A stretch of 64,000 nt of DNA from positions 832,001 to 896,000 of the forward strand of contig CBDDCK010000005.1 in the NCBI GenBank assembly GCA_965225855.1. Direction: 5' to 3'. The notes under the pieces are model-generated. The model saw nothing but the letters and a program-made list of their open reading frames with translations. It was not told the DNA's origin and did no database searches. Position numbers and translations under genes: made by a program. The stretch is from Spirochaetia bacterium (GTDB lineage Bacteria; Spirochaetota; Spirochaetia; SP-2023). Of this stretch, positions 11,542 through 61,523 are shown piece after piece; position 1 is the stretch's first letter, and every line of letters starts with the position of its first letter.

Positions 11542-12777
11542 GTGCCTAAATATTTTAGTGCAGAGAATATTTATCATAATGGTGTGTTTTGCCCCGAGAG
11601 TATTTTGGCGGTAAATGATGATGGCTATGTTATCGGGGTGTTGCCTCGCAGTTATCTCAAGGCCGAGCAGACAAAATATTGTATGGATTTTGGGGAGCGT
11701 ATTCTTGCACCGGGCTGGGTTGATTTGCAGTTAAATGGTTGCGGTGGCGGTTTGTTTAACCGTGATTTAAATTTGGCCTGTATTGAAAAAATGCTATACA
11801 GTAGCCTTAGGCATGGGGCCACCAGTGTTCAGCCCACTTTGATTACTTGTAGTGATGAGCATATTTTAGAAGCACTGGAGGTAGTGCGCCAAGCAAAACA
11901 AAAAGCAATACAAGCGCAGCAGAAAAAAGATTGTAGTCAATGGCAATTGTGGCAAACCGTTATGGGAATGCATTTGGAAGGCCCTTATATTTCGGTAGCT
12001 CGGCGGGGTGCCCACCCGGAGCGTTTTGTTCGCAAACTAGATGAAGCGATGCTGCAAAAATTAGAGGCAGCGGGCCGCAATGGTATATTGCGCTATATTA
12101 CAATTGGCGCAGAATCGGTTCAGCCCGAGCAAGTAGCCCGTTTGGCTACCAGTGGTCTGACGGTTGCTCTGGGCCATACAGGGGCTGCCATTAGAAATTC
12201 GTGTGCGTTATTGTTGGCAGGGGCCCGTTGTTTTACCCATTTGTATAACGGCATGGGGGGGATTGATAGCCGCGATCCGCACACTTTAAGTTTAGCTTTA
12301 TCAGACAGGCGAGCCTATAGCGGTATTATTGCGGACGGCTTTCATGTTGCGCCAGAAAATATTCGCATTGCCCAGTGTTTATTAGGCAACCGTTTATTTT
12401 TGGTTACCGATGCTACTGCTACCACTGATGGTGCTGGTGGTGGCGAAGACAGTGTGTTTTTTGGCGAACAAAATTGTTATATCCGCGATGGCATTATTTG
12501 TAATGAAGAGGGTCGATTAGCTGGCTCTACTTTGACGATGAAGCGTGGTGTAGAAATTTTAGCAAATTTGTTTGATTTGCAAACCGCATTGGAAATGGCT
12601 TCGGTGAATCCTGTGCAAGCTTTGAACCCTCAAAATTTAGACAATCGCAGGATTGGCACTTTTGCACCGGGCACTAAGGCCAATTTTGTAGTGCTCGATG
12701 TTTCTCGCCATAGACGGATTTGTGAAATTTCTAGCTTAGAAACTTGGGTATTGGGGCAGCGTTGGCAATACTATTAG
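11542..12777 (+). CDS. nagA: N-acetylglucosamine-6-phosphate deacetylase
   Basis: PGWVDLQLNG, HLEGPY, RRGAH, GHT, THLYNGM, IADGFHV, LVTDA, LAGSTLTM. Confidence 0.93.
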   Translation: MPKYFSAENIYHNGVFCPESILAVNDDGYVIGVLPRSYLKAEQTKYCMDFGERILAPGWVDLQLNGCGGGLFNRDLNLACIEKMLYSSLRHGATSVQPTLITCSDEHILEALEVVRQAKQKAIQAQQKKDCSQWQLWQTVMGMHLEGPYISVARRGAHPERFVRKLDEAMLQKLEAAGRNGILRYITIGAESVQPEQVARLATSGLTVALGHTGAAIRNSCALLLAGARCFTHLYNGMGGIDSRDPHTLSLALSDRRAYSGIIADGFHVAPENIRIAQCLLGNRLFLVTDATATTDGAGGGEDSVFFGEQNCYIRDGIICNEEGRLAGSTLTMKRGVEILANLFDLQTALEMASVNPVQALNPQNLDNRRIGTFAPGTKANFVVLDVSRHRRICEISSLETWVLGQRWQYY

Positions 12778-12898
12778 ATTATTGCCATAAGTAATGTTTC
12801 ATCTTTAAAAATTAGTATGGAACAACCAAAGGCTGAAACAATGCAAAGGCCCACCCCCAAGCACCACCCCACCGTACCCACCCAATAACTGCCCCAGC

Positions 12899-12972
12899 CC
12901 AAAGCAACAAACCGAAACCAACAAGCCAAAGCAACAAACCGAAATAGCCATACAAACGCACATACAAACGCA
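12899..12972 (+). repeat. Short direct repeats in a C/A-rich leader region
   Basis: CCAAAGCAACAAACCGAAA x2 (12899, 12926) and CATACAAACGCA x2. Confidence 0.8.
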
Positions 12973-13009
12973 ATTGGTTTGCCGATGCCAATCTACAAGT
13001 CATCGCCTG
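12939..13009 (+). repeat. Conserved non-coding block preceding the 23-bp array; second copy at 47591-47669 (minus strand)
   Basis: CCGAAATAGCC...CATCGCCTG matches in both loci except an 8-bp GCAATTGG duplication in the second copy. Confidence 0.9.
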
Positions 13010-13010
13010 A

Positions 13011-13172
13011 CTTACCACAATATAGCTTTCCCCACTGGATCAAGGCCTTGATCCGCATTGGTATAAAGTATTGTTCCGTATTACTACAATATAGCTTTCC
13101 GCATTGGAGTAATGCATTGTTACCCACTGGATCAAGACCTTGATCCAAGGCGGAAAGCTATATTGTAGCAAG
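13011..13172. repeat. 162-bp array of seven 18-bp quasi-palindromes at 23-bp period with inverted termini (copy 1)
   Basis: Cores start at 13014, 13037, 13060, 13083, 13106, 13129, 13152, with 5-bp linkers; ends CTTACCACAATATAGCTTTCC / GGAAAGCTATATTGTAGCAAG. Confidence 0.9.
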
Positions 13173-13235
13173 GCACTAAAAAACACAAAAACATAAAAAA
13201 AGCACAAAAAAACTTACAAAAAGCTTATATAGGCC

Positions 13236-13262
13236 TTGACTCAATTCCCCCCCTAACACAAT
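13236..13262 (+). promoter_or_regulatory. Putative sigma70 promoter with C7 tract in a 15-bp spacer (lipoprotein copy 1)
   Basis: TTGACT-caattCCCCCCCtaa-CACAAT; same layout at all three paralogs; A-tracts upstream. Confidence 0.65.
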
Positions 13263-13325
13263 AGGGCTCTATGCACTAGCCCGTATGGGTTGGCTAATCT
13301 TTATCCATTCTTGGAGGTATTGCTT

Positions 13326-15476
13326 ATGTATAAGCTCAAACTACTTTTATTGCCTGTAGCATTGCTACTGGCCTTTATGGCCTTGGCCTGCGCACCACCC
13401 GATGACGATGATCGATCTTCTGCGCCGTCTAAGCCGACTATCAATAACGCCATCTACGACTTTGCTACGGCTCTGTTAACCGTACAAGGTACTGACTTAA
13501 GTCCTACAGAAGCGCAAATCCAAACCATCGTAGTAGATGGTGTAGCCTTAAGTTCCTATACTGCAGATGACCCAGCCACTGGGCCAGATAGTAACGGTCT
13601 TGCAAAAGGTAAGTACCGTATGAAAAGCGATGGCACAGCGATTTGGCTTAGACTTACCGATCGACATAAAGCTACTCTGAATGGCAAGGTGGGTAGCAAT
13701 GGTCTAAAAAAAGGGTTGCTTACTAGCTCTGGTGCTTGGGCGGGTTTAGATACAGCCAAAGACTTAACCGTTAGCAATATACCCGATAAGCAGACCGAAA
13801 CCGAAGAAGAGTCGCCTAAGTTACCCGAAGCCGAACAAACCGAAGAAGTCGATGATCAATCGCCTAAGCAACCTAAAGACAAACAAGTCGAACAAGCTGA
13901 AGAGGAGTCGCCTAAGCAACCTAAAGACGAACAAGTCGAACAAGCTGAAGAGGAGTCGCCTAAGCAACCTAAAGACGAACAAGTCGAACAAGCTGAAGAG
14001 GAGTCGCCTGAACTACCCGAAGCTGCAATTACCCGTGCAACCTACAATGTTGGCACGGCGCTGTTAACTGTACAAGGTACTGACTTAGGTAGTGCGACCC
14101 AAGCCCAAATCCAAACCATCGTGGTAGATGGCCTAGCCTTAAGTTCCTATATTGCAGATGCCACAGCCACTGGGCCAGATAGTCGCGGTCTTGCAAAAGG
14201 TAAGTACCGCCTGCATAGCGCTGGCACAGCGCTTTGGCTGAAACTTACCGATCAACATAAAGCTACTCTGAATGGCAAAACAGGTATGGATAGCAATGGT
14301 CTAAAAGATGGGTTGCTTACTAGCACTGGTACTTGGGCGGGTTTAGATACAGCCAAAGCCTTGTCCGTTAGTGGAAACCCACCCACAATTACCAGTGCAA
14401 GCTACAATGTATATTTAGGCTTCTTAGAGCTTACAGGTACTAATTTACCGAAAACAGTTGCAAGATGGGACTTTAGCAAATTGACGCTTGTATCCGGTGA
14501 TGGTACTAAGAGATACCCATTACCCCAGCACTCAACTTTAGGTAGAAACAGAGCCACAGGTTCTAATGCAAGTGCAACAGGCTTAGATATTATTTTAAAC
14601 GGTAGTGTAAAAGCGGAAGCCGATAAGATACTGGTTAAGGAAGGTGTTCGTGATGCTAATGGTGCATACAACCTGGAAGCAGCAGCAGGCTTTGCAGGTG
14701 GTAGCGCAGCAGACACAACCAATCCTATTACCGTTAGGGGGTATACAGCCAGCATCACCCGTGCAACCTACGATGCTAATACAGGCGAGTTATATATTAT
14801 TGGTATCAAGTTACCGAGAGCAGTTGCAGACTGGGACTTTAGCAAATTGACGATTGTATCCGGTGATGGTACTAAGAGATACCCATTACCCCAGCACGCA
14901 ACTGCAGGTGAAAACACAGCCACAGGTTCTAGTGCAGGTACAGCCTACTTAAGTATTACTTTAAGCGGTAGTGTAAAAGCGGAAGCCGAGAAGATATTGG
15001 TTAACGATGGTGATAGTGATGCTAATGGTGCATACAACCTGGAAGCAGCAGCAGAATTTGTATCTGGTAGTCCAGAAGACCCAACCAACCCTATTACCGT
15101 TAGTGGGTATGTAGCCAGCATCACCAGTGCAAGCTACAATGCTTATTTAGGCCGGTTATTGATTATAGGTAGCAGGTTACCGAGAGCAGTTACAGACTGG
15201 GACTTTAGCAAATTGACGATTGTATCCGGTGATGGTAGTAAGAGATTCACATTACCCCGGCACGCAACAGGTGAAAACACAGCCACAGGTTCTAGTGTAG
15301 GTACAACCTACTTAGATATTACTTTAAGCGGTAGTGTAAAAGCGGAAGCCGATAAGATACTGGTTGAGGCTGGTCTTGGTGATGCTAATGGTGCATACAA
15401 CCTTAAAGCAGCAGCAGAATTTGTACCTGGTAGCGCAGAAGACCTAACCAATGCTATTCAAGTAGTTATACATTAA
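13326..15476 (+). CDS. Modular repeat surface lipoprotein, paralog 1 (A-linker-A-B-B-B)
   Basis: GGAGG RBS then MYKLKLLLLPVALLLAFMALA-C lipoprotein signal; two types of ~120-aa beta-rich repeat; acidic linker. Confidence 0.85.
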   Translation: MYKLKLLLLPVALLLAFMALACAPPDDDDRSSAPSKPTINNAIYDFATALLTVQGTDLSPTEAQIQTIVVDGVALSSYTADDPATGPDSNGLAKGKYRMKSDGTAIWLRLTDRHKATLNGKVGSNGLKKGLLTSSGAWAGLDTAKDLTVSNIPDKQTETEEESPKLPEAEQTEEVDDQSPKQPKDKQVEQAEEESPKQPKDEQVEQAEEESPKQPKDEQVEQAEEESPELPEAAITRATYNVGTALLTVQGTDLGSATQAQIQTIVVDGLALSSYIADATATGPDSRGLAKGKYRLHSAGTALWLKLTDQHKATLNGKTGMDSNGLKDGLLTSTGTWAGLDTAKALSVSGNPPTITSASYNVYLGFLELTGTNLPKTVARWDFSKLTLVSGDGTKRYPLPQHSTLGRNRATGSNASATGLDIILNGSVKAEADKILVKEGVRDANGAYNLEAAAGFAGGSAADTTNPITVRGYTASITRATYDANTGELYIIGIKLPRAVADWDFSKLTIVSGDGTKRYPLPQHATAGENTATGSSAGTAYLSITLSGSVKAEAEKILVNDGDSDANGAYNLEAAAEFVSGSPEDPTNPITVSGYVASITSASYNAYLGRLLIIGSRLPRAVTDWDFSKLTIVSGDGSKRFTLPRHATGENTATGSSVGTTYLDITLSGSVKAEADKILVEAGLGDANGAYNLKAAAEFVPGSAEDLTNAIQVVIH
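13860..14003 (+). repeat. Intragenic tandem repeat 3 x 48 bp (SPKQPKDEQVEQAEEE)
   Basis: Units start at 13860, 13908, 13956. Confidence 0.95.
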
Positions 15477-15610: not shown

Positions 15611-15686
15611 GTTGTTGCAACGCTTGCATTGGCCAATTATAGCCTTGGTAAGTTTTTTATCAAGGCTGCTTTTGCCAATTATAGCC
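15611..15686 (+). repeat. Partial copy of the hairpin repeat found at 58447-58615
   Basis: GTTGTTGCAACGCTTGCATTGGCCAATT..AGCCTTGGTAAGTTTTTTATCAAGGCTGCTTTT matches the reverse complement of about 58540-58615. Confidence 0.85.
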
Positions 15687-15940
15687 ATTCTGGAAAGTAG
15701 AAAAAAATCGAGTTATCACGTCCGATGGCACAAAGTTATCACGTCCTGCATCATTTAGTCGGGGCTCTTCCCGCAAAGAACTTTGGCAATACAGTGTTTG
15801 GGGCTTGTTGTTTGGGTGGAATGTTACGATCTTCTGCCTGAATTAAGTATCGGACACGAGATATTTTGATACGCAAGCCTTAGTGTCTTCTCAATAAAAA
15901 AGCACAAAAAGTATTTGGATAAACTTATCATAATTCGATC

Positions 15941-44576: not shown

Positions 44577-46958
44577 TTATAACACTACACTAATACTAGT
44601 TGTTGGGTCTTCTGGACTACCAGTTACAAATCCTGCTGCTGCTTCCAGGTTGTATGCACCATTATTATCACTACCACCTTTCTTAAACAGTATCTTATCG
44701 ACTTCCGCTTTTACACTACCGCTTAAAATCATCCTTAAGCCTCCTATACCTGCTGCAGTACCTGTGGCTGTGTCTTCACCTGCGGTTGCGTGCTGGGGTA
44801 ATGTGTATTTCTTACTACCATCACCGGATACAAACGTCAATTTGCTAAAGTCCCACTCTGCAATTGTTGTCGGTAAATCAGTACCAGAAAGCCATAACTC
44901 GCCTTTATCAGCATAGTATGATGCGTTGATGATGCTGGCTGTATACCCACTAACGGTAATAGGGTTATTGCTTGTGTCTGCTGCCCTACCACCTGCAAAT
45001 CCTGCTGCTGCTTCCAGGTTGTATTCACTACCAGTATTTCCTGTAAGACCATTCCTAGACAATATATTCTCGGCTTGCGCTTTTACTCTACCGCTTAAAG
45101 TAATCGTTAAGCTTGTTGCACTTGCTGCAGAACCTGTGGCTATGTCTGCACCTGTGGTTGAGTGCTGGGGTAATGTGTAGCTGCGTGAAATATTATTTAT
45201 TCCAAACCTCAATTTTCTAAAGTCCCAGCTATTCACTGTTGACGGTAAATTAGTACCTGTAATCACTAACACGCCTGTAATAGCATTGTAGGTTGCACTG
45301 GTAATTGCGGGTGGTGGGTTTCCACTAACGGCTAAGGCTTTGGCTGTATTTAAACCCGCCCAAGCACCAGTGCCAACGCTAAGCAACCTATCTTTTCTAC
45401 CATTGCTATCCATACCGGTCTTGCCATTCAGAGTAGCTTTATGTTGATCGGTAAGGTAAAGCCAAAGCGCTGTGCCAGCGCTATGCAGGCGGTACTTACC
45501 TTTTGTAAGACCGCGACTATCTGGACCATTGGCATCCTCATCTGCAATATAGGAACTTAAGGCTAAGCCAGCTACCGTGATAGTTTGGATTTGGGCTTGT
45601 TGCGCACTACCTAAGTGATTACCTTGTATGGTTAGCAGCGCCGTGCCAACATGGTAGGTTGCACTGGTAATTGCGGGTGGGTTTCCACTAACGGCCAAGG
45701 CTTTGGCTGTATCTAAACCCGCCCAAGTACCAGTGCTAGTAAGCAACCCATCTTTTAGACCATTGCTATCCATACCGGGCTTGCCATTCAGAGTAGTTTT
45801 ATGTCGATCGGTAAGGTAAAGCCAAAGCGCTGTGCCATCGCTTTTCATACGGTACTTACCTTTTGCAAGACCGCGACTATCTGGCCCAGTGGCTGTGGCA
45901 GTATAGGAATCTAAAGCTACCCCATCTACCGTGATGGTTTGGATTTGGGCTTGGGTAGCACTAGCTAAGAGAGTACCTTGCAAGGTTAACAGCGCCGTGC
46001 CAACATGGTAGCTTGCACCGGTAATTGCGGGGTTTCCACTAACGGTTAAGGCTTTGGCTGTATCTAAACCCGCCCAACTACCAGTGCTAGTAAGCAACCC
46101 ATCTTTTAGACCATTGCTATCCATACCGTCCTTGCCATTCAGAGTAGTTTTATGTTGATCGGTAAGGTAAAGCCAAAGCGCTGTGCCATCGCTTTTAATA
46201 CGGTACTTACCTTTTGCAAGACTGCTACTATCTGCCCCAGTGGCTGTGCCATCTGCAGTATAAGAATTTAAGACTAGGTCATATACTTTGATGGTTTGGA
46301 TTTGGGCTTGGGTCGCAGTTGTAGGACTTAAGTTAGAACCTTGTACAGTTAGCAGCGCCGTGCCAACATGGTAGCTTGCACGGGTAATTGCAGCTTCAGG
46401 CGACTGCTCTTCAGCTTGTTCGACTTGTTCAGCTTGTTCGTCTTCAGTTTGCTTAGATGGCTGATTGTCATCGGATACTTTAGACTGCTTATCGGGTACA
46501 TTCCTAACGGTTAAGTCTTTGGCTGTATTTAAACCCGCCCAAGCACCAGAGCTAGTAAGCAACCCTTTTTTTAGACCATTGGTATTCATACCCACCTTGG
46601 TCTGAAGAGCAGCTTTATGTGGATCGGTAAGTCTAAGCCAAATCGCTGTGCCATCGCTTTTCATACGGTACTTACCTTTTGCCAGATTGCTATTATCTGG
46701 CCCAGTGGGTTTGGCATCTGCAGTATAGGAACTTAAGGCTACGCCATCTACTACGATGGTTTGGATTTGGGCTTCTGTAGGACTTAAGTCAGTACCTTGT
46801 ACGGTTAACAGCGCCGTAGCAAAGTCGTAGATGGCGTTATTGATAGTCGGCTTAGACGGCCCAGAAGATCGATCATCGTCATCGGGTGGGGCGCAGGCCA
46901 AGGCCATAAAGGCCAGTAGCCAGGCTACTGGCAATAAAAGTAGTTTGAGCTTATACAT
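44577..46958 (-). CDS. Modular repeat surface lipoprotein, paralog 2 (A-linker-A-A-A-B-B)
   Basis: Same RBS, lipoprotein signal and repeat types as paralog 1; 5' ~450 bp nearly identical to it. Confidence 0.85.
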   Translation of the reverse strand: MYKLKLLLLPVAWLLAFMALACAPPDDDDRSSGPSKPTINNAIYDFATALLTVQGTDLSPTEAQIQTIVVDGVALSSYTADAKPTGPDNSNLAKGKYRMKSDGTAIWLRLTDPHKAALQTKVGMNTNGLKKGLLTSSGAWAGLNTAKDLTVRNVPDKQSKVSDDNQPSKQTEDEQAEQVEQAEEQSPEAAITRASYHVGTALLTVQGSNLSPTTATQAQIQTIKVYDLVLNSYTADGTATGADSSSLAKGKYRIKSDGTALWLYLTDQHKTTLNGKDGMDSNGLKDGLLTSTGSWAGLDTAKALTVSGNPAITGASYHVGTALLTLQGTLLASATQAQIQTITVDGVALDSYTATATGPDSRGLAKGKYRMKSDGTALWLYLTDRHKTTLNGKPGMDSNGLKDGLLTSTGTWAGLDTAKALAVSGNPPAITSATYHVGTALLTIQGNHLGSAQQAQIQTITVAGLALSSYIADEDANGPDSRGLTKGKYRLHSAGTALWLYLTDQHKATLNGKTGMDSNGRKDRLLSVGTGAWAGLNTAKALAVSGNPPPAITSATYNAITGVLVITGTNLPSTVNSWDFRKLRFGINNISRSYTLPQHSTTGADIATGSAASATSLTITLSGRVKAQAENILSRNGLTGNTGSEYNLEAAAGFAGGRAADTSNNPITVSGYTASIINASYYADKGELWLSGTDLPTTIAEWDFSKLTFVSGDGSKKYTLPQHATAGEDTATGTAAGIGGLRMILSGSVKAEVDKILFKKGGSDNNGAYNLEAAAGFVTGSPEDPTTSISVVL

Positions 46959-47213: not shown

Positions 47214-47427
47214 TGGGCGGTATCAATATATCGCAGTTGGGGTCATCGGCCCGCAATATATAGCCAGATATTGTGCAAGTCGTCTAAAATGCCAGCATTG
47301 ACGCTGTGGGCTAAGGTCAAAGCATCGGCATACTGGCCCTATTTGAGGTCGTCCCAGTTTTGGCTTTCTACGATGTTGTTGGGTTTTAGCAAGTCTATGG
47401 CCTGCTTATTTTTATGGTTTTTAGTGC

Positions 47428-47589
47428 CTTGCTATGATACATCTCTCCGCCTTCGATCAATACCTTACTCCAATGCGGATCAAGGCCTTGATCGAAGTGG
47501 GAAAGTTATATTGCACCAATGCGGAGTAAGGCATTACTCCAATGCGGAACAATACTTTATACCAATGTGGAAAGCTATATTGTAGCAAG
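47428..47589. repeat. 162-bp array of seven 18-bp quasi-palindromes at 23-bp period (copy 2)
   Basis: Cores start at 47431, 47454, 47477, 47500, 47523, 47546, 47569; same core vocabulary as 13011-13172 in a different order. Confidence 0.9.
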
Positions 47590-47722
47590 ACAGGCGATGA
47601 CTTGTAGATTGGCATCGGCAAACCAATTGCCCAATTGCGTTTGTATGTGCGTTTGTATGGCTATTTCGGCTTGTTGGGCTAGTGTCGGCTTAGTGTGGGC
47701 CGTTCAGCAAGATAACAAGCTT

Positions 47723-58250: not shown

Positions 58251-58446
58251 GAAGCTTCACTATTTTTTGAGGCAATACACCATTGTACCATTTTAGCCGC
58301 TGTAAAACCACTAGCCTTTAGTATGAATTAAAGCAACATATTCGGTGCTGGTCTCTGGAGTCTAAAGCCTGTAATTCGGCTTCCAAACTTTTTGTTCTTT
58401 TTTAGCTTGGTTGTACCAGCCTTTGGCTATATTGGCTTCCCGTATT

Positions 58447-58615
58447 TACCAAGGCTATAATTGACAAAAGCAACCTTGATAAAAAATTTTACCAAGGCTA
58501 TAATTGGCAAAAGCAACCTTGGTATTTTCTCCATACCAAGGCTGTAATTGGGAAAAGCAGCCTTGATAAAAAACTTACCAAGGCTGCAATTGGCCAATGC
58601 AAGCGTTGCAACAAC
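58447..58615. repeat. REP-like array: 35-bp hairpin unit at 42-44-bp period, three full copies plus one partial
   Basis: TACCAAGGCT.TAATTG..AAAAGCA.CCTTG.TA at 58447, 58490, 58534; partial copy at 58576. Confidence 0.88.
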
Positions 58616-58625
58616 CAAACTCTAC

Positions 58626-60770
58626 TTACCGAATTATAACTTGAATACTAGTGGTTGGGTCTTCTGGACTACCAGGTACAAATTCTGCTTTTGCTTCCAG
58701 GTTGTATTCACCATTATTATCACTACTACCAGCCTTAACCAGTATAGCATTGGCTTTGGCTTTTACATTACCGCTTAAAGTAATCTTTAAGAATGTTGCA
58801 TCTGCTTCAGAACCTGTGGCTCTGTTTGCACCTAAAGTTGAGTGCCGGGGTAATGTGAATCTCTTACTACCATCACCGGATACAAGCGTCAATTTGCTAA
58901 AGTCCCATTCTGCAACTGTTTCCGGTAACCTGCTACCACTAATATATAACACACCTGTACGAGTTATATATGATACGTTGTTGATCTGGCTTACGTAGCC
59001 ACTAACGGTAATAGGATTAGTTGTGTCTGCTGCGCTACTACCAATTACAAATCCTGCTGCTGCTTCAAGGTTGTATGCACCAGCATCATCACTTTTACCA
59101 CCCTTAACCAGTATCTTATTGACTTCCGCTTTTACATTACCGCTTAAAGTAATCCTTAAGCCTGTTGCACTTACAAAAGAACCTGTGGCTGTGTTTTCAC
59201 CTGCAGTTGCGTGCCGGGGTAATGGGTATCTCTTTCTACCATCACCGGATACAAGCGTCAATTTGCTAAAGTCCCATCCTGCAATTGATGTCGGTAACTT
59301 GCTACCAATAATATATAACTCGCCTGTATTAACATCGTAGGTTGCTTTGTCGATTCTGACTACATACCCACTAACGGTAATAGGGTTATTGCTTGTGTCT
59401 GCTGCGCTACTACCAATTACAAATCCTGCTGCTGCTTCAAGGTTGTATGCACCAGTATCATCACTATCACCATTCTTAACCAGTATAGCCTCGGCTTTCC
59501 TTTGTTCACTACCCCCTAAAGTAATCGTTAAGCTGGTTGTACTTGCTGCAGAACCTGTGGCAAAGTTTATAGTTGCATATCGGTAGTGTGCTCTTAATGT
59601 GTCACTCTTACGACCATTACCTGCGACAAACCTCAATTTCCTAAAGTCCCAGCCTGTAACTGTTTTCGGTAAATTGATACCTGTAATCACTAACACGCCT
59701 GTACCAGCATTGTAGGTTGCACGGGTAATTGCAGCTTCAGGCGACTGCTGATCTTCAGTTTCGGTCTTAGACTGCTGATCTTCGACTTCTTCGGTTTGTT
59801 CGGCTTCGGGTAGTTCAGGCGACTGCTGATCTTCAGTTTCGGTCTTAGACTGCTGATCTTCGACTTCTTCGGTTTGTTCGGCTTCGGGTAGTTCAGGCGA
59901 CTGCTGATCTTCAGTTTCGGTCTTAGACTGCTGATCTTCGACTTCTTCGGCTTGTTCGTCTTTAGGTTGCTTAGGCGACTGCTGATCTTCAGTTTCGGTC
60001 TTAGACTGCTGATCTTCGACTTCTTCGGCTTGTTCGTCTTTAGGTTGCTTAGGCGACTGCTGATCTTCAGTTTCGGTCTTAGACTGCTGATCTTCGACTT
60101 CTTCGGCTTGTTCGTCTTTAGGTTGCTTAGGCGACTGCTGATCTTCAGTTTCGGTCTTAGACTGCTGATCTTCGACTTCTTCGGCTTGTTCGTCTTTAGG
60201 TTGCTTAGGCGACTGCTCTTCGGCTTGTTCAGCTTCTTCAGTTTGCTTAGATGGCTGATTGTCATCGGATACTTTAGACTGCTTATTTTCGGGTACATTA
60301 CTAACGTCCAAGTCTTTAGGTGTATTTAAACCCGCCCAAGCACCAGAGCCAACGCTAAGCAACCCTTTTTTTAGACCATCCTTATTCATACCGGGCTTGG
60401 CCTCAAGAGTAGCTTTATGTTGATCGGTAAGTTTCAGCCAAATCGCTGTGCCATCGTTTGCAATACGGTACTTACCTTGTTCAAGACCGTTACTATCTGG
60501 CCCAGTGGCTGGGTCATCTGCAGTATAGGAATTTAAGACTACGCCATATACTTTGATGGTTTGGATTTGCGCTTGGGTCGCAGTTGTAGGACTTAAGTGA
60601 GTACCTTGTACGGTTAACAGCGCCGTGCCAACATCGTAGCTTGCACTGGTGATTGCAGGCCCAGAAGACGGCCCAGAAGATCGATCATCGTCATCGGGTG
60701 GGGCGCAGGCAAAGGCCATAAAGACCAGTAGCCGGGCTAATGGCAATAAAAATAGTTTGAGCTTATACAT
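58626..60770 (-). CDS. Modular repeat surface lipoprotein, paralog 3 (A-long linker-B-B-B)
   Basis: MYKLKLFLLPLARLLVFMAFA-C signal, same A/B repeats, GGAGG RBS. Confidence 0.85.
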   Translation of the reverse strand: MYKLKLFLLPLARLLVFMAFACAPPDDDDRSSGPSSGPAITSASYDVGTALLTVQGTHLSPTTATQAQIQTIKVYGVVLNSYTADDPATGPDSNGLEQGKYRIANDGTAIWLKLTDQHKATLEAKPGMNKDGLKKGLLSVGSGAWAGLNTPKDLDVSNVPENKQSKVSDDNQPSKQTEEAEQAEEQSPKQPKDEQAEEVEDQQSKTETEDQQSPKQPKDEQAEEVEDQQSKTETEDQQSPKQPKDEQAEEVEDQQSKTETEDQQSPKQPKDEQAEEVEDQQSKTETEDQQSPELPEAEQTEEVEDQQSKTETEDQQSPELPEAEQTEEVEDQQSKTETEDQQSPEAAITRATYNAGTGVLVITGINLPKTVTGWDFRKLRFVAGNGRKSDTLRAHYRYATINFATGSAASTTSLTITLGGSEQRKAEAILVKNGDSDDTGAYNLEAAAGFVIGSSAADTSNNPITVSGYVVRIDKATYDVNTGELYIIGSKLPTSIAGWDFSKLTLVSGDGRKRYPLPRHATAGENTATGSFVSATGLRITLSGNVKAEVNKILVKGGKSDDAGAYNLEAAAGFVIGSSAADTTNPITVSGYVSQINNVSYITRTGVLYISGSRLPETVAEWDFSKLTLVSGDGSKRFTLPRHSTLGANRATGSEADATFLKITLSGNVKAKANAILVKAGSSDNNGEYNLEAKAEFVPGSPEDPTTSIQVIIR
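59740..60207 (-). repeat. Intragenic tandem repeat 6 x 78 bp (26-aa acidic unit)
   Basis: Units at 59740, 59818, 59896, 59974, 60052, 60130; four QSPKQPKDEQAEEVEDQQSKTETEDQ and two QSPELPEAEQTEEVEDQQSKTETEDQ. Confidence 0.95.
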
Positions 60771-61113: not shown

Positions 61114-61523
61114 AGACCGTGGCCCGTTACCATGATATTTTGATACTTGATGCGATATTGTTGCCCAATTACTGCCGACAACCCATATGCCGAAAAACAA
61201 AAATTTTTTACCTTTTTATTTTGGAAAGTAAGCCAATTTGTACCTTCCATTTGTCCCAAAAAAATCCCGAGTTATCGCGTCTTATCCCGTAAGTTATCAT
61301 GTCCTCTTTCAATTCTCTGAGGGCTGGAAAAAAACCGTCATTCTGGAAATTAAAAAATTGTAGTTGTCTCTATTCTGCAAAACTATCATTTCGTAGCAAG
61401 TTTACCTTTGCTGTGCTTTTATCCATTTTCAGAAATATTTTTTCAAAAGGAGTTGGAATATTTTTATCAAAGGATTATAATAAGTTCAGTCAGATGCCAA
61501 AGTTATTTGGTAGGAGATAAAAT

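Follow-up and report, generated by a model that had tools for sequence, protein, structure and literature searches.

The 23-bp palindrome array that precedes a predicted lipoprotein gene in this spirochaete is probably one copy of a species-specific mosaic passenger repeat, similar in kind to NIMEs and BIMEs, which is carried and reshuffled with natural mini-Mu cassettes that encode lipoproteins. The order of its units likely carries no message, and the repeat likely hitch-hikes in phage-derived mini-transposons that likely spread about 106 predicted surface-lipoprotein genes. The observations behind this reading are a family of related arrays in the same genome, its three subfamilies, its link to a single gene family, prophage ends and fragments in the flanks of those genes, and 6-bp duplications at some of the cassettes. 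The window, i.e., the whole 64,000-nucleotide stretch of DNA that was analyzed, contains the following arrays and lipoprotein genes:

13009 to 13174, plus strand: array 1 (U subfamily), seven cores of 18 bp joined by 5-bp linkers, the last unit inverted
13326 to 15476, plus strand: gene 1 for a predicted 716-aa lipoprotein, which belongs to the 106-gene family and has no Pfam match
44577 to 46958, minus strand: predicted lipoprotein gene 2, 793 aa, a paralog
47426 to 47591, minus strand: array 2 (U subfamily), seven cores at 47431 to 47586
58626 to 60770, minus strand: predicted lipoprotein gene 3, 714 aa, without an array

The cores of array 1 occupy 13014 to 13169 in a strict 23-bp step, and the outer linkers reach 13009 and 13174. 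The initial annotation had described seven 18-bp cores joined by 5-bp linkers, exactly as found here; its span of 13011 to 13172 was in the right place, but the limits took in three flanking bases on each side. It was also correct that a second array, whose seven cores we place on the minus strand, is oriented to its own gene as array 1 is, and that the left flank and AAGGCACTAAAAA are common to both arrays. The distance from the array to the ATG is 157 bp for gene 1 and 473 bp for gene 2, and an identical copy of array 2 is located at C1:227584 of the same genome. The equal length of the two arrays, previously read as conserved, is a coincidence, since U arrays have 5 to 10 units and seven units are present in 6 of 18. 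The proposed 21-bp inverted ends agree at 19 of 21 positions in array 1 and at 16 of 21 in array 2, and inverted terminal repeats are absent from the arrays of the T subfamily.

The genome that holds the window (G000, 2.71 Mb in five contigs, 94% complete) was surveyed by an iterated core search. Its host is probably a spirochaete, to go by a flagellin N-terminus, which NCBIfam labels simply as flagellin, and by the lipoproteins. The search returned 51 arrays with 308 units (4 to 15 units per array) and three isolated single cores. Thirty-five of the 51 arrays are distinct in sequence, and the units comprise 81 core types, i.e., the cores are reused. This reuse, together with the lack of a CRISPR match in Rfam, agrees with the earlier statement that the array is not CRISPR. 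Nearly all arrays (49/51) lie outside recognizable genes, and the other two are inside prophage genes. The D subfamily (20 copies, six sequences) has a nearly fixed four-unit form, the U subfamily (18 copies, 5–10 units, two of them assigned by hand) is variable in order and holds both window arrays, and the T subfamily (13 copies, 4–15 units) is mostly an alternating dimer. As the initial annotation had supposed, the arrays are tied to the lipoprotein genes: 41 of the 51 are no more than 520 bp away from one of the 106 family genes, as compared to a mean of 10 and a maximum of 20 in 2000 random intergenic placements. The unit number varies across the 51 loci as it would in a generic repeat, but the loci are not the unrelated ones that such a repeat would occupy. 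The 10 arrays that are away from any family gene count against the passenger model. A five-unit array at C5:676225–676334 lies between cas2 and a 202-repeat CRISPR array, and is itself enclosed by two copies of a degenerate repeat-like segment.

Judging from the genomes searched, the 51-copy palindromic repeat appears to be species-specific. The array and the lipoprotein family were not found in three congeners and two genomes of the same order (79–92% complete). A BLAST search of the array in 40 relatives gave no match in 39, and the lone match covers 26 bp outside the array. With two mismatches allowed, the palindromic core was found in 0 of the 5 closest genomes, as was the lipoprotein (0/5). 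No exact core match was present in viral contigs, and GTDB genomes yielded seven single core matches and no arrays. Lipoprotein relatives were not found in JGI metagenome contigs, nor were J relatives in viral contigs, and the 375 kb of congener DNA scanned, related prophages included, contained no differently worded arrays.

The unit order was then compared across copies. The initial annotation had argued that simple tandem duplication is insufficient to explain it, and we concur. Where copies differ in unit order, each can be read as an in-register mosaic of others. With one mismatch permitted per segment, all 16 distinct U arrays parse into two to eight segments of other arrays, and array 1 into six. 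The closest sister of array 1, at C5:1394587, has the flanks and units 3, 4, 6, and 7 in common with it; array 2 belongs to a different sub-lineage. Donor segments of at least 18 nt were on the same strand in 105 of 112 cases and in the 23-bp phase in 112 of 112, the latter being weak evidence on its own and partly circular, because long matches must be in phase. Linkage between half cores is higher within a core than across a linker (1.47 vs 0.86 bits of excess mutual information), and some hybrid cores are joined at the core center. The linkers are directional. In 37 of the 38 U and D arrays their direction reverses a single time, with one unit left to the end, and an internally inverted unit was found in 0 of 51 arrays. 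One shared terminal flip and no internal flips point to one inherited fold-back at a palindromic core rather than to an invertase, and the suggestion of a recombination-site array, taken as invertible sites, is not supported on the same count. The suggestion of a MITE-like element fares no better. The arrays resemble MITEs and Correia elements in size (about 160 bp) and high copy number and, outside the T subfamily, may do so in their imperfect inverted ends, but a flanking duplication of at least 4 bp was found at 0 of 51 arrays, the flanks are common to copies, the unit count is variable, and the mobile unit is the larger cassette.

The DNA of array 1 folds into one long hairpin (z = −9.3, 0 of 200 shuffles as good), and the folds of most arrays are far stronger than those of shuffled sequence (z of −5 to −11). 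The inner order is not fold-optimized: inner-unit permutation in U arrays gives folding about as good as the native order, and for array 1, 47% of 40 permutations were as good. The multi-hairpin RNA of the initial annotation is in line with the strong folding, but not with an inner order that does no better than a permuted one. It is quite unlikely that the arrays act at the level of RNA or transcription, with downstream D arrays as 3′ stabilizing or pausing hairpins and upstream arrays as clusters of extended −10 promoters. Apart from the folding, 19 D arrays lie 84 to 220 bp past a stop codon in a single orientation, and TG-N-TAYAAW occurs in 50 of 51 arrays (perfect TG-N-TATAAT in 14), both of which are consistent with such a role. 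However, the inner order is not optimized, most family genes have no array, and array 1 has no T run after its hairpin and no promoter or terminator call. A search of Rfam gave nothing near the gathering score; two plant miRNA matches were far below it and were discarded as chance hairpins. RNA-level roles are possible as by-products.

The product of gene 1 has a signal peptide and a lipobox, from which a surface location is predicted for the family. The 106 genes cover 212,589 bp, or 7.8% of G000. This count stems from a start-motif search, which gave 107 ORFs, minus one false hit of 30 aa; BLAST clustering gave 110. A protein search found 91 relatives, 86 on contigs equal in length to the genome's own and five from ENA contigs, and the ESM Atlas returned scores under 0.8 only. 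The family shares a candidate promoter module, which in front of gene 1 reads as follows:

13236 to 13262, plus strand: putative −35 hexamer, C7 tract, and −10-like hexamer, common to the family; a consensus scan gave no promoter call

A combinatorial operator array, as proposed in the initial annotation, is conceivable, but 67 of the 106 genes have the same promoter module and no array (39 carry one). The poly-C tract between the −35-like and −10-like hexamers is C7 in 85 family genes, C6 in 19, C8 in one, and C9 in one. This spread resembles spacer-length phase variation, with only the C8 and C9 copies near normal spacing, and could be mimicked by homopolymer assembly errors. In gene 3, tandem repeats (window 59690–60298) leave a different frame open for 202 aa, so that the two ORFs overlap; this second ORF is a by-product of the acidic linker repeats. 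A second repeat of roughly 42 bp, with GCCTT/AAGGC linkers like those of the array, is located at 15630–15700 and 58430–58600 of the window, between the family stop codons and the right end. The CRISPR arrays of G000 are found at C5:662644–675909, 896071–902506, and 1074340–1094649; 12 of the 578 spacers match the host genome, and two of these match the lipoprotein family at more than 100 places, about its 8% share.

The flanks of the family link it to a phage. G000 contains a 36-kb Mu-like prophage (C5, about 1,257,680–1,293,766) with genes for terminase, Mu portal, F, a cI-like repressor, a DDE transposase, an AAA ATPase, DUF3164, GemA, Mor, Mu I, T, baseplate J, and gp48. The prophage is defective, with frameshifts in portal, the tape-measure region, and J, while the transposase and ATPase ORFs are open. 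The one DDE transposase ORF (586 aa, PF00665) lies beside an AAA_22 ATPase and is predicted to encode the transposase; it is located at C5:1273165–1274925, and the repressor gene at C5:1268886–1269425. No multi-copy IS transposase was seen in G000. The left terminus of the prophage is degenerate and without a matching duplication, which counts against the passenger model, as do the broken portal and J genes. Further prophage pieces are located at the contig ends of C4 and C3. In contigs of run X1, possibly the source sample, the depth is 36–39 at portal vs 9 beside nagA, which may mean several copies or replication.

At their outer edges, the repeated flanks of the lipoprotein genes have inverted motifs that start with TGA and contain two 12-bp sites 23 bp apart, and the same motifs terminate the prophage. 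The initial annotation had overlooked this mobile-element context, which in the window consists of the following:

12767 to 13325, plus strand: multi-copy mosaic 5′ flank of lipoprotein gene 1
12932 to 12995, plus strand: left flank of array 1, part of the prophage gene that directly precedes baseplate J (83% identity, 64 bp)
15711 to 15753, minus strand: right end of the Mu-like element, which has a terminal TG and a pair of putative transposase sites spaced by 23 bp
47605 to 47694, minus strand: left flank of array 2, part of the same prophage gene (82%, 90 bp)
61269 to 61311, minus strand: left end of the Mu-like element, upstream of gene 3

The small gene before baseplate J we take, as a label, to be in the Mu gp46 position. 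In the 5′ flank of gene 1, the copy number climbs from 3 to about 110 towards the gene. Prophage DNA is present in the flanks of 61 of the 106 family genes; further arrays border on parts of the ATPase, tail-circulation-like, J/gp48, and, weakly, F genes, and arrays are located at junctions between such phage fragments.

G000 has 30 left-type and 32 right-type TG..CA ends, and the end motif occurs 85 times as compared to 6, 2, and 3 times in the congeners, two of which have related transposases. A left end lies upstream of 29 of the 106 family genes, a right end lies downstream of 27, both are present at 16, and neither at 66. Gene 1 has a right end only (15753) and gene 3 a left end only (61311). 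Five of the 16 facing end pairs, which bound cassettes of 2.4 to 3.7 kb, are enclosed by a perfect 6-bp duplication. When full-type left ends were compared with any right end, 7 of 18 had a 6-bp match, whereas neither of two shifted controls had any (0 of 576 pairs). The combination of TG–CA ends and a 6-bp duplication is a B3-type signature according to passages of PMC8705779. Mini-Mu transposition is demonstrated for a minority of the family, because only the 16 genes keep both ends and 66 have neither. Neither window array sits in a two-ended cassette, and there is no 6-bp duplication around the window's own cassettes. Two matched pairs of ends are far apart (C5:1352036 with C5:156270, and C5:1616622 with C5:1590138; separations of 1.2 Mb and 26 kb, respectively), which suggests later chromosome rearrangement between cassette copies.

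The two arrays within prophage genes allow comparison with intact alleles. A four-unit array replaces 48 portal codons (144 bp) with 107 bp relative to the 95%-identical intact protein P0093, and a contig from a second study aligns on both sides of this array and not across it, being about 37 bp longer, as an intact allele would be. A 15-unit array supplants the 3′ half of J, where roughly 470 bp of the intact allele on C4 correspond to about 330 bp. An assembly artefact is extremely improbable as the origin of the arrays. Array 1 is spanned by no contig among those listed, hence its exact unit order is provisional; against an artefact, Illumina-type contigs of run X1 tile the portal array with 0 differences, second-study contigs carry related units, and sister arrays recur on other contigs.

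No source of the 23-bp unit was found among the J, portal, and phage-end candidates, which counts against the passenger model, and neither J nor portal has a collinear match to the arrays. The idea that the array was carved in place from J coding DNA was rejected, as its score equals that of controls with permuted units (as high in 494, 452, and 643 cases per 1000) and was also reached by 366 of 1000 windows drawn at random from the genome. The same applies to portal (score reached by 90 random and 50 shuffled peptides, out of 300 each) and to a subterminal palindrome of the phage ends in the congener G002, the full motif of which occurs 0 times in the arrays. A 14-mer in common with the intact J allele (0.011 expected per 520 bp) had made such an origin look attractive by eye.

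The junctions with phage DNA bear on whether the arrays are sites of enzyme-driven recombination, which we regard as very unlikely. Hybrid cores that join at the core center, arrays that take the place of portal and J DNA, and the location of arrays at phage-fragment junctions would be expected of such sites. Against this, no array has an internal inversion, no IS110 gene (PF02371, 0 matches) and no Y1 gene was found in G000, and by eye the junctions look like short microhomologies. Two tyrosine recombinases are 4.9 and 18.6 kb from the nearest array, and this distance, like the lack of internal inversions, also sets the arrays apart from a shufflon.

It is highly improbable that the units form a guide-RNA array, CRISPR- or TIGR-like, aimed at the prophage. 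The regular period, the 9-nt half cores, the nearness to phage-derived DNA, and the array beside cas2 recall such systems. TIGR arrays, as described in part of bioRxiv 10.64898/2026.09.09.750476, have box C–N9–box D intervals and 36-nt dual-spacer units; array 1 has 0 such intervals, those elsewhere come from one palindromic variant, and the 35 distinct arrays contain one dual-repeat pair. Moreover, the units are reused and not unique, and their period is 23 and not 18 or 36. No Nop-family (Tas) gene was found with PF01798 (0 matches, with a model that may miss Tas proteins), the array neighbors being nagA, nadC, and lipoprotein genes, and 0 of 578 CRISPR spacers match the arrays or the prophage.

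A further alternative, which we consider unlikely, is that the cores are sites for a dimeric protein, such as a prophage repressor, an enhancer domain of the transposase, or a nucleoid protein of the host, and were amplified since binding aids cassette transposition or tunes the gene. The 18-bp cores are quasi-palindromic with conserved outer GG/CC, and the 23-bp period is the same as the distance between the two end sites, which counts against the passenger model. Divergent units hold the frame: in the 15-unit array, about nine have no counterpart elsewhere and yet keep it, which neutral decay fits poorly and which also counts against the passenger model. So does the near-invariance of the D array in 20 copies, which may reflect selection or just recent spread. 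In the sections of PMC5847225 that deal with it, an enhancer strongly boosted amplification of engineered mini-Mu. However, arrays are not enriched in two-ended cassettes (5/16 vs 34/90, p = 0.78), one of the five duplication-intact cassettes has an array, and the end motif is found in 0 of 51 arrays. There is also no array in the repressor–ner interval, nor in the scanned congener DNA with its related prophages, and the distance and side of the array relative to the gene vary across copies. A bolder version, rather unlikely in our estimation, holds that the Mu-like prophage is a domesticated surface-antigen amplifier. Its transposase would have seeded about 106 lipoprotein loci, or 8% of the genome, with copies of natural mini-Mu cassettes, the arrays would be a new class of cis site matched to the 23-bp end spacing that promotes cassette movement or exchange, and insertion into the portal and baseplate genes would have disarmed the phage and left transposition intact. 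Overall, the operator, enhancer, promoter, and guide-RNA readings are weaker than that of a mosaic passenger repeat.

Judged by sequence, the array appears to be a new family of a familiar type, intergenic mosaic palindromes, and seems to work most like NIME and BIME. Neisserial NIME/dRS3 repeats, in the parts of PMC1797815 that describe them, likewise form genus- or species-restricted arrays of about 20-bp palindromic units of variable number that flank surface-protein genes, and are proposed recombination substrates linked to a phage transposase; variable arrays beside predicted surface-protein genes are what we find at 41 of 51 loci. In contrast, the spirochaete arrays have a fixed 5-bp linker as opposed to RS elements of 19 to 214 bp, contain ATTCCC (of dRS3 ATTCCC-N8-GGGAAT) in 0 of 51 cases, use a small reused core set, and go with a Mu-like prophage instead of an IS110-type recombinase. 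REP, BIME, and REPIN elements, as far as PMC2817692 and PMC3116915 cover them, are also extragenic imperfect palindromes in regularly spaced, species-specific mosaics with strong folding. Unlike these, the arrays are accompanied by no RAYT/Y1 HUH gene (PF01797, 0 matches in G000; the control was positive in 6 of 14 genomes), are direct runs with at most one terminal flip and not of alternating orientation, have GTAG in 14 of 51 arrays and inside cores rather than at the terminus, and are tied to one gene family in 80% of cases, with two inside genes. The repeat is placed outside NIME and BIME because it lacks their sequence signatures and enzymes. The cassettes, in turn, match B3-type prophages, mini-Mu, and mini-B3 as presented in portions of PMC8705779 and PMC5847225, with TG..CA ends, paired sites, a 6-bp target duplication, and a DDE transposase plus ATPase that would act in trans. 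The mini-Mu units in those portions are engineered tools, whereas the G000 cassettes are natural, 2.4 to 3.7 kb in length, contain a host-type lipoprotein gene, and are present in dozens of copies. A search of open-literature listings turned up no natural lipoprotein-carrying mini-Mu units and no lipoprotein families borne on prophage ends.

We propose the following route to the present arrays. The basic form would be a tandem dimer in which an asymmetric core is paired with a palindromic one, as in the T subfamily. A single fold-back at the palindromic core may then have joined the direct run to an inverted end unit, to be inherited by U and D. Slippage, unequal crossover, and gene conversion among similar 23-bp units could add, drop, and swap units with the phase kept, so that the unit order looks permuted. 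Cassettes bounded by prophage ends would have been copied by B3-type (6-bp) replicative transposition in trans, and later recombination between copies may have scrambled them and also placed arrays in prophage genes. The array would be at most a recombination substrate beside variable surface genes.

The cassettes are more surprising than the palindromic repeat, and the context of the array matters more than the array alone. The sequence evidence suggests that natural mini-Mu units dispersed a roughly 106-gene family of predicted surface lipoproteins in one species, and such cassettes provide a concrete, testable way to build large antigen families that does not involve insertion sequences. 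The arrays, a case free of RAYT and IS110, can be used to test whether such mosaics need a dedicated enzyme. They also parallel the question posed by NIMEs, whether flanking repeats cause surface-gene variation or merely record it.

Related material is present in the congeners. A 27.7-kb Mu-like element related to the G000 prophage is located at G002:C1, about 229,800–257,550; it has kept transposase, ends, and tail genes, has no match to the terminase, portal, protease, and capsid genes, and is thus headless and possibly tailocin-like. In the congener G001, at about 621,000 and 637,000 of C4, unrelated lipoprotein-like genes lie amid scrambled Mu-like terminase, F, J, and portal fragments together with the end motif, hinting that the patchwork process may be genus-wide.
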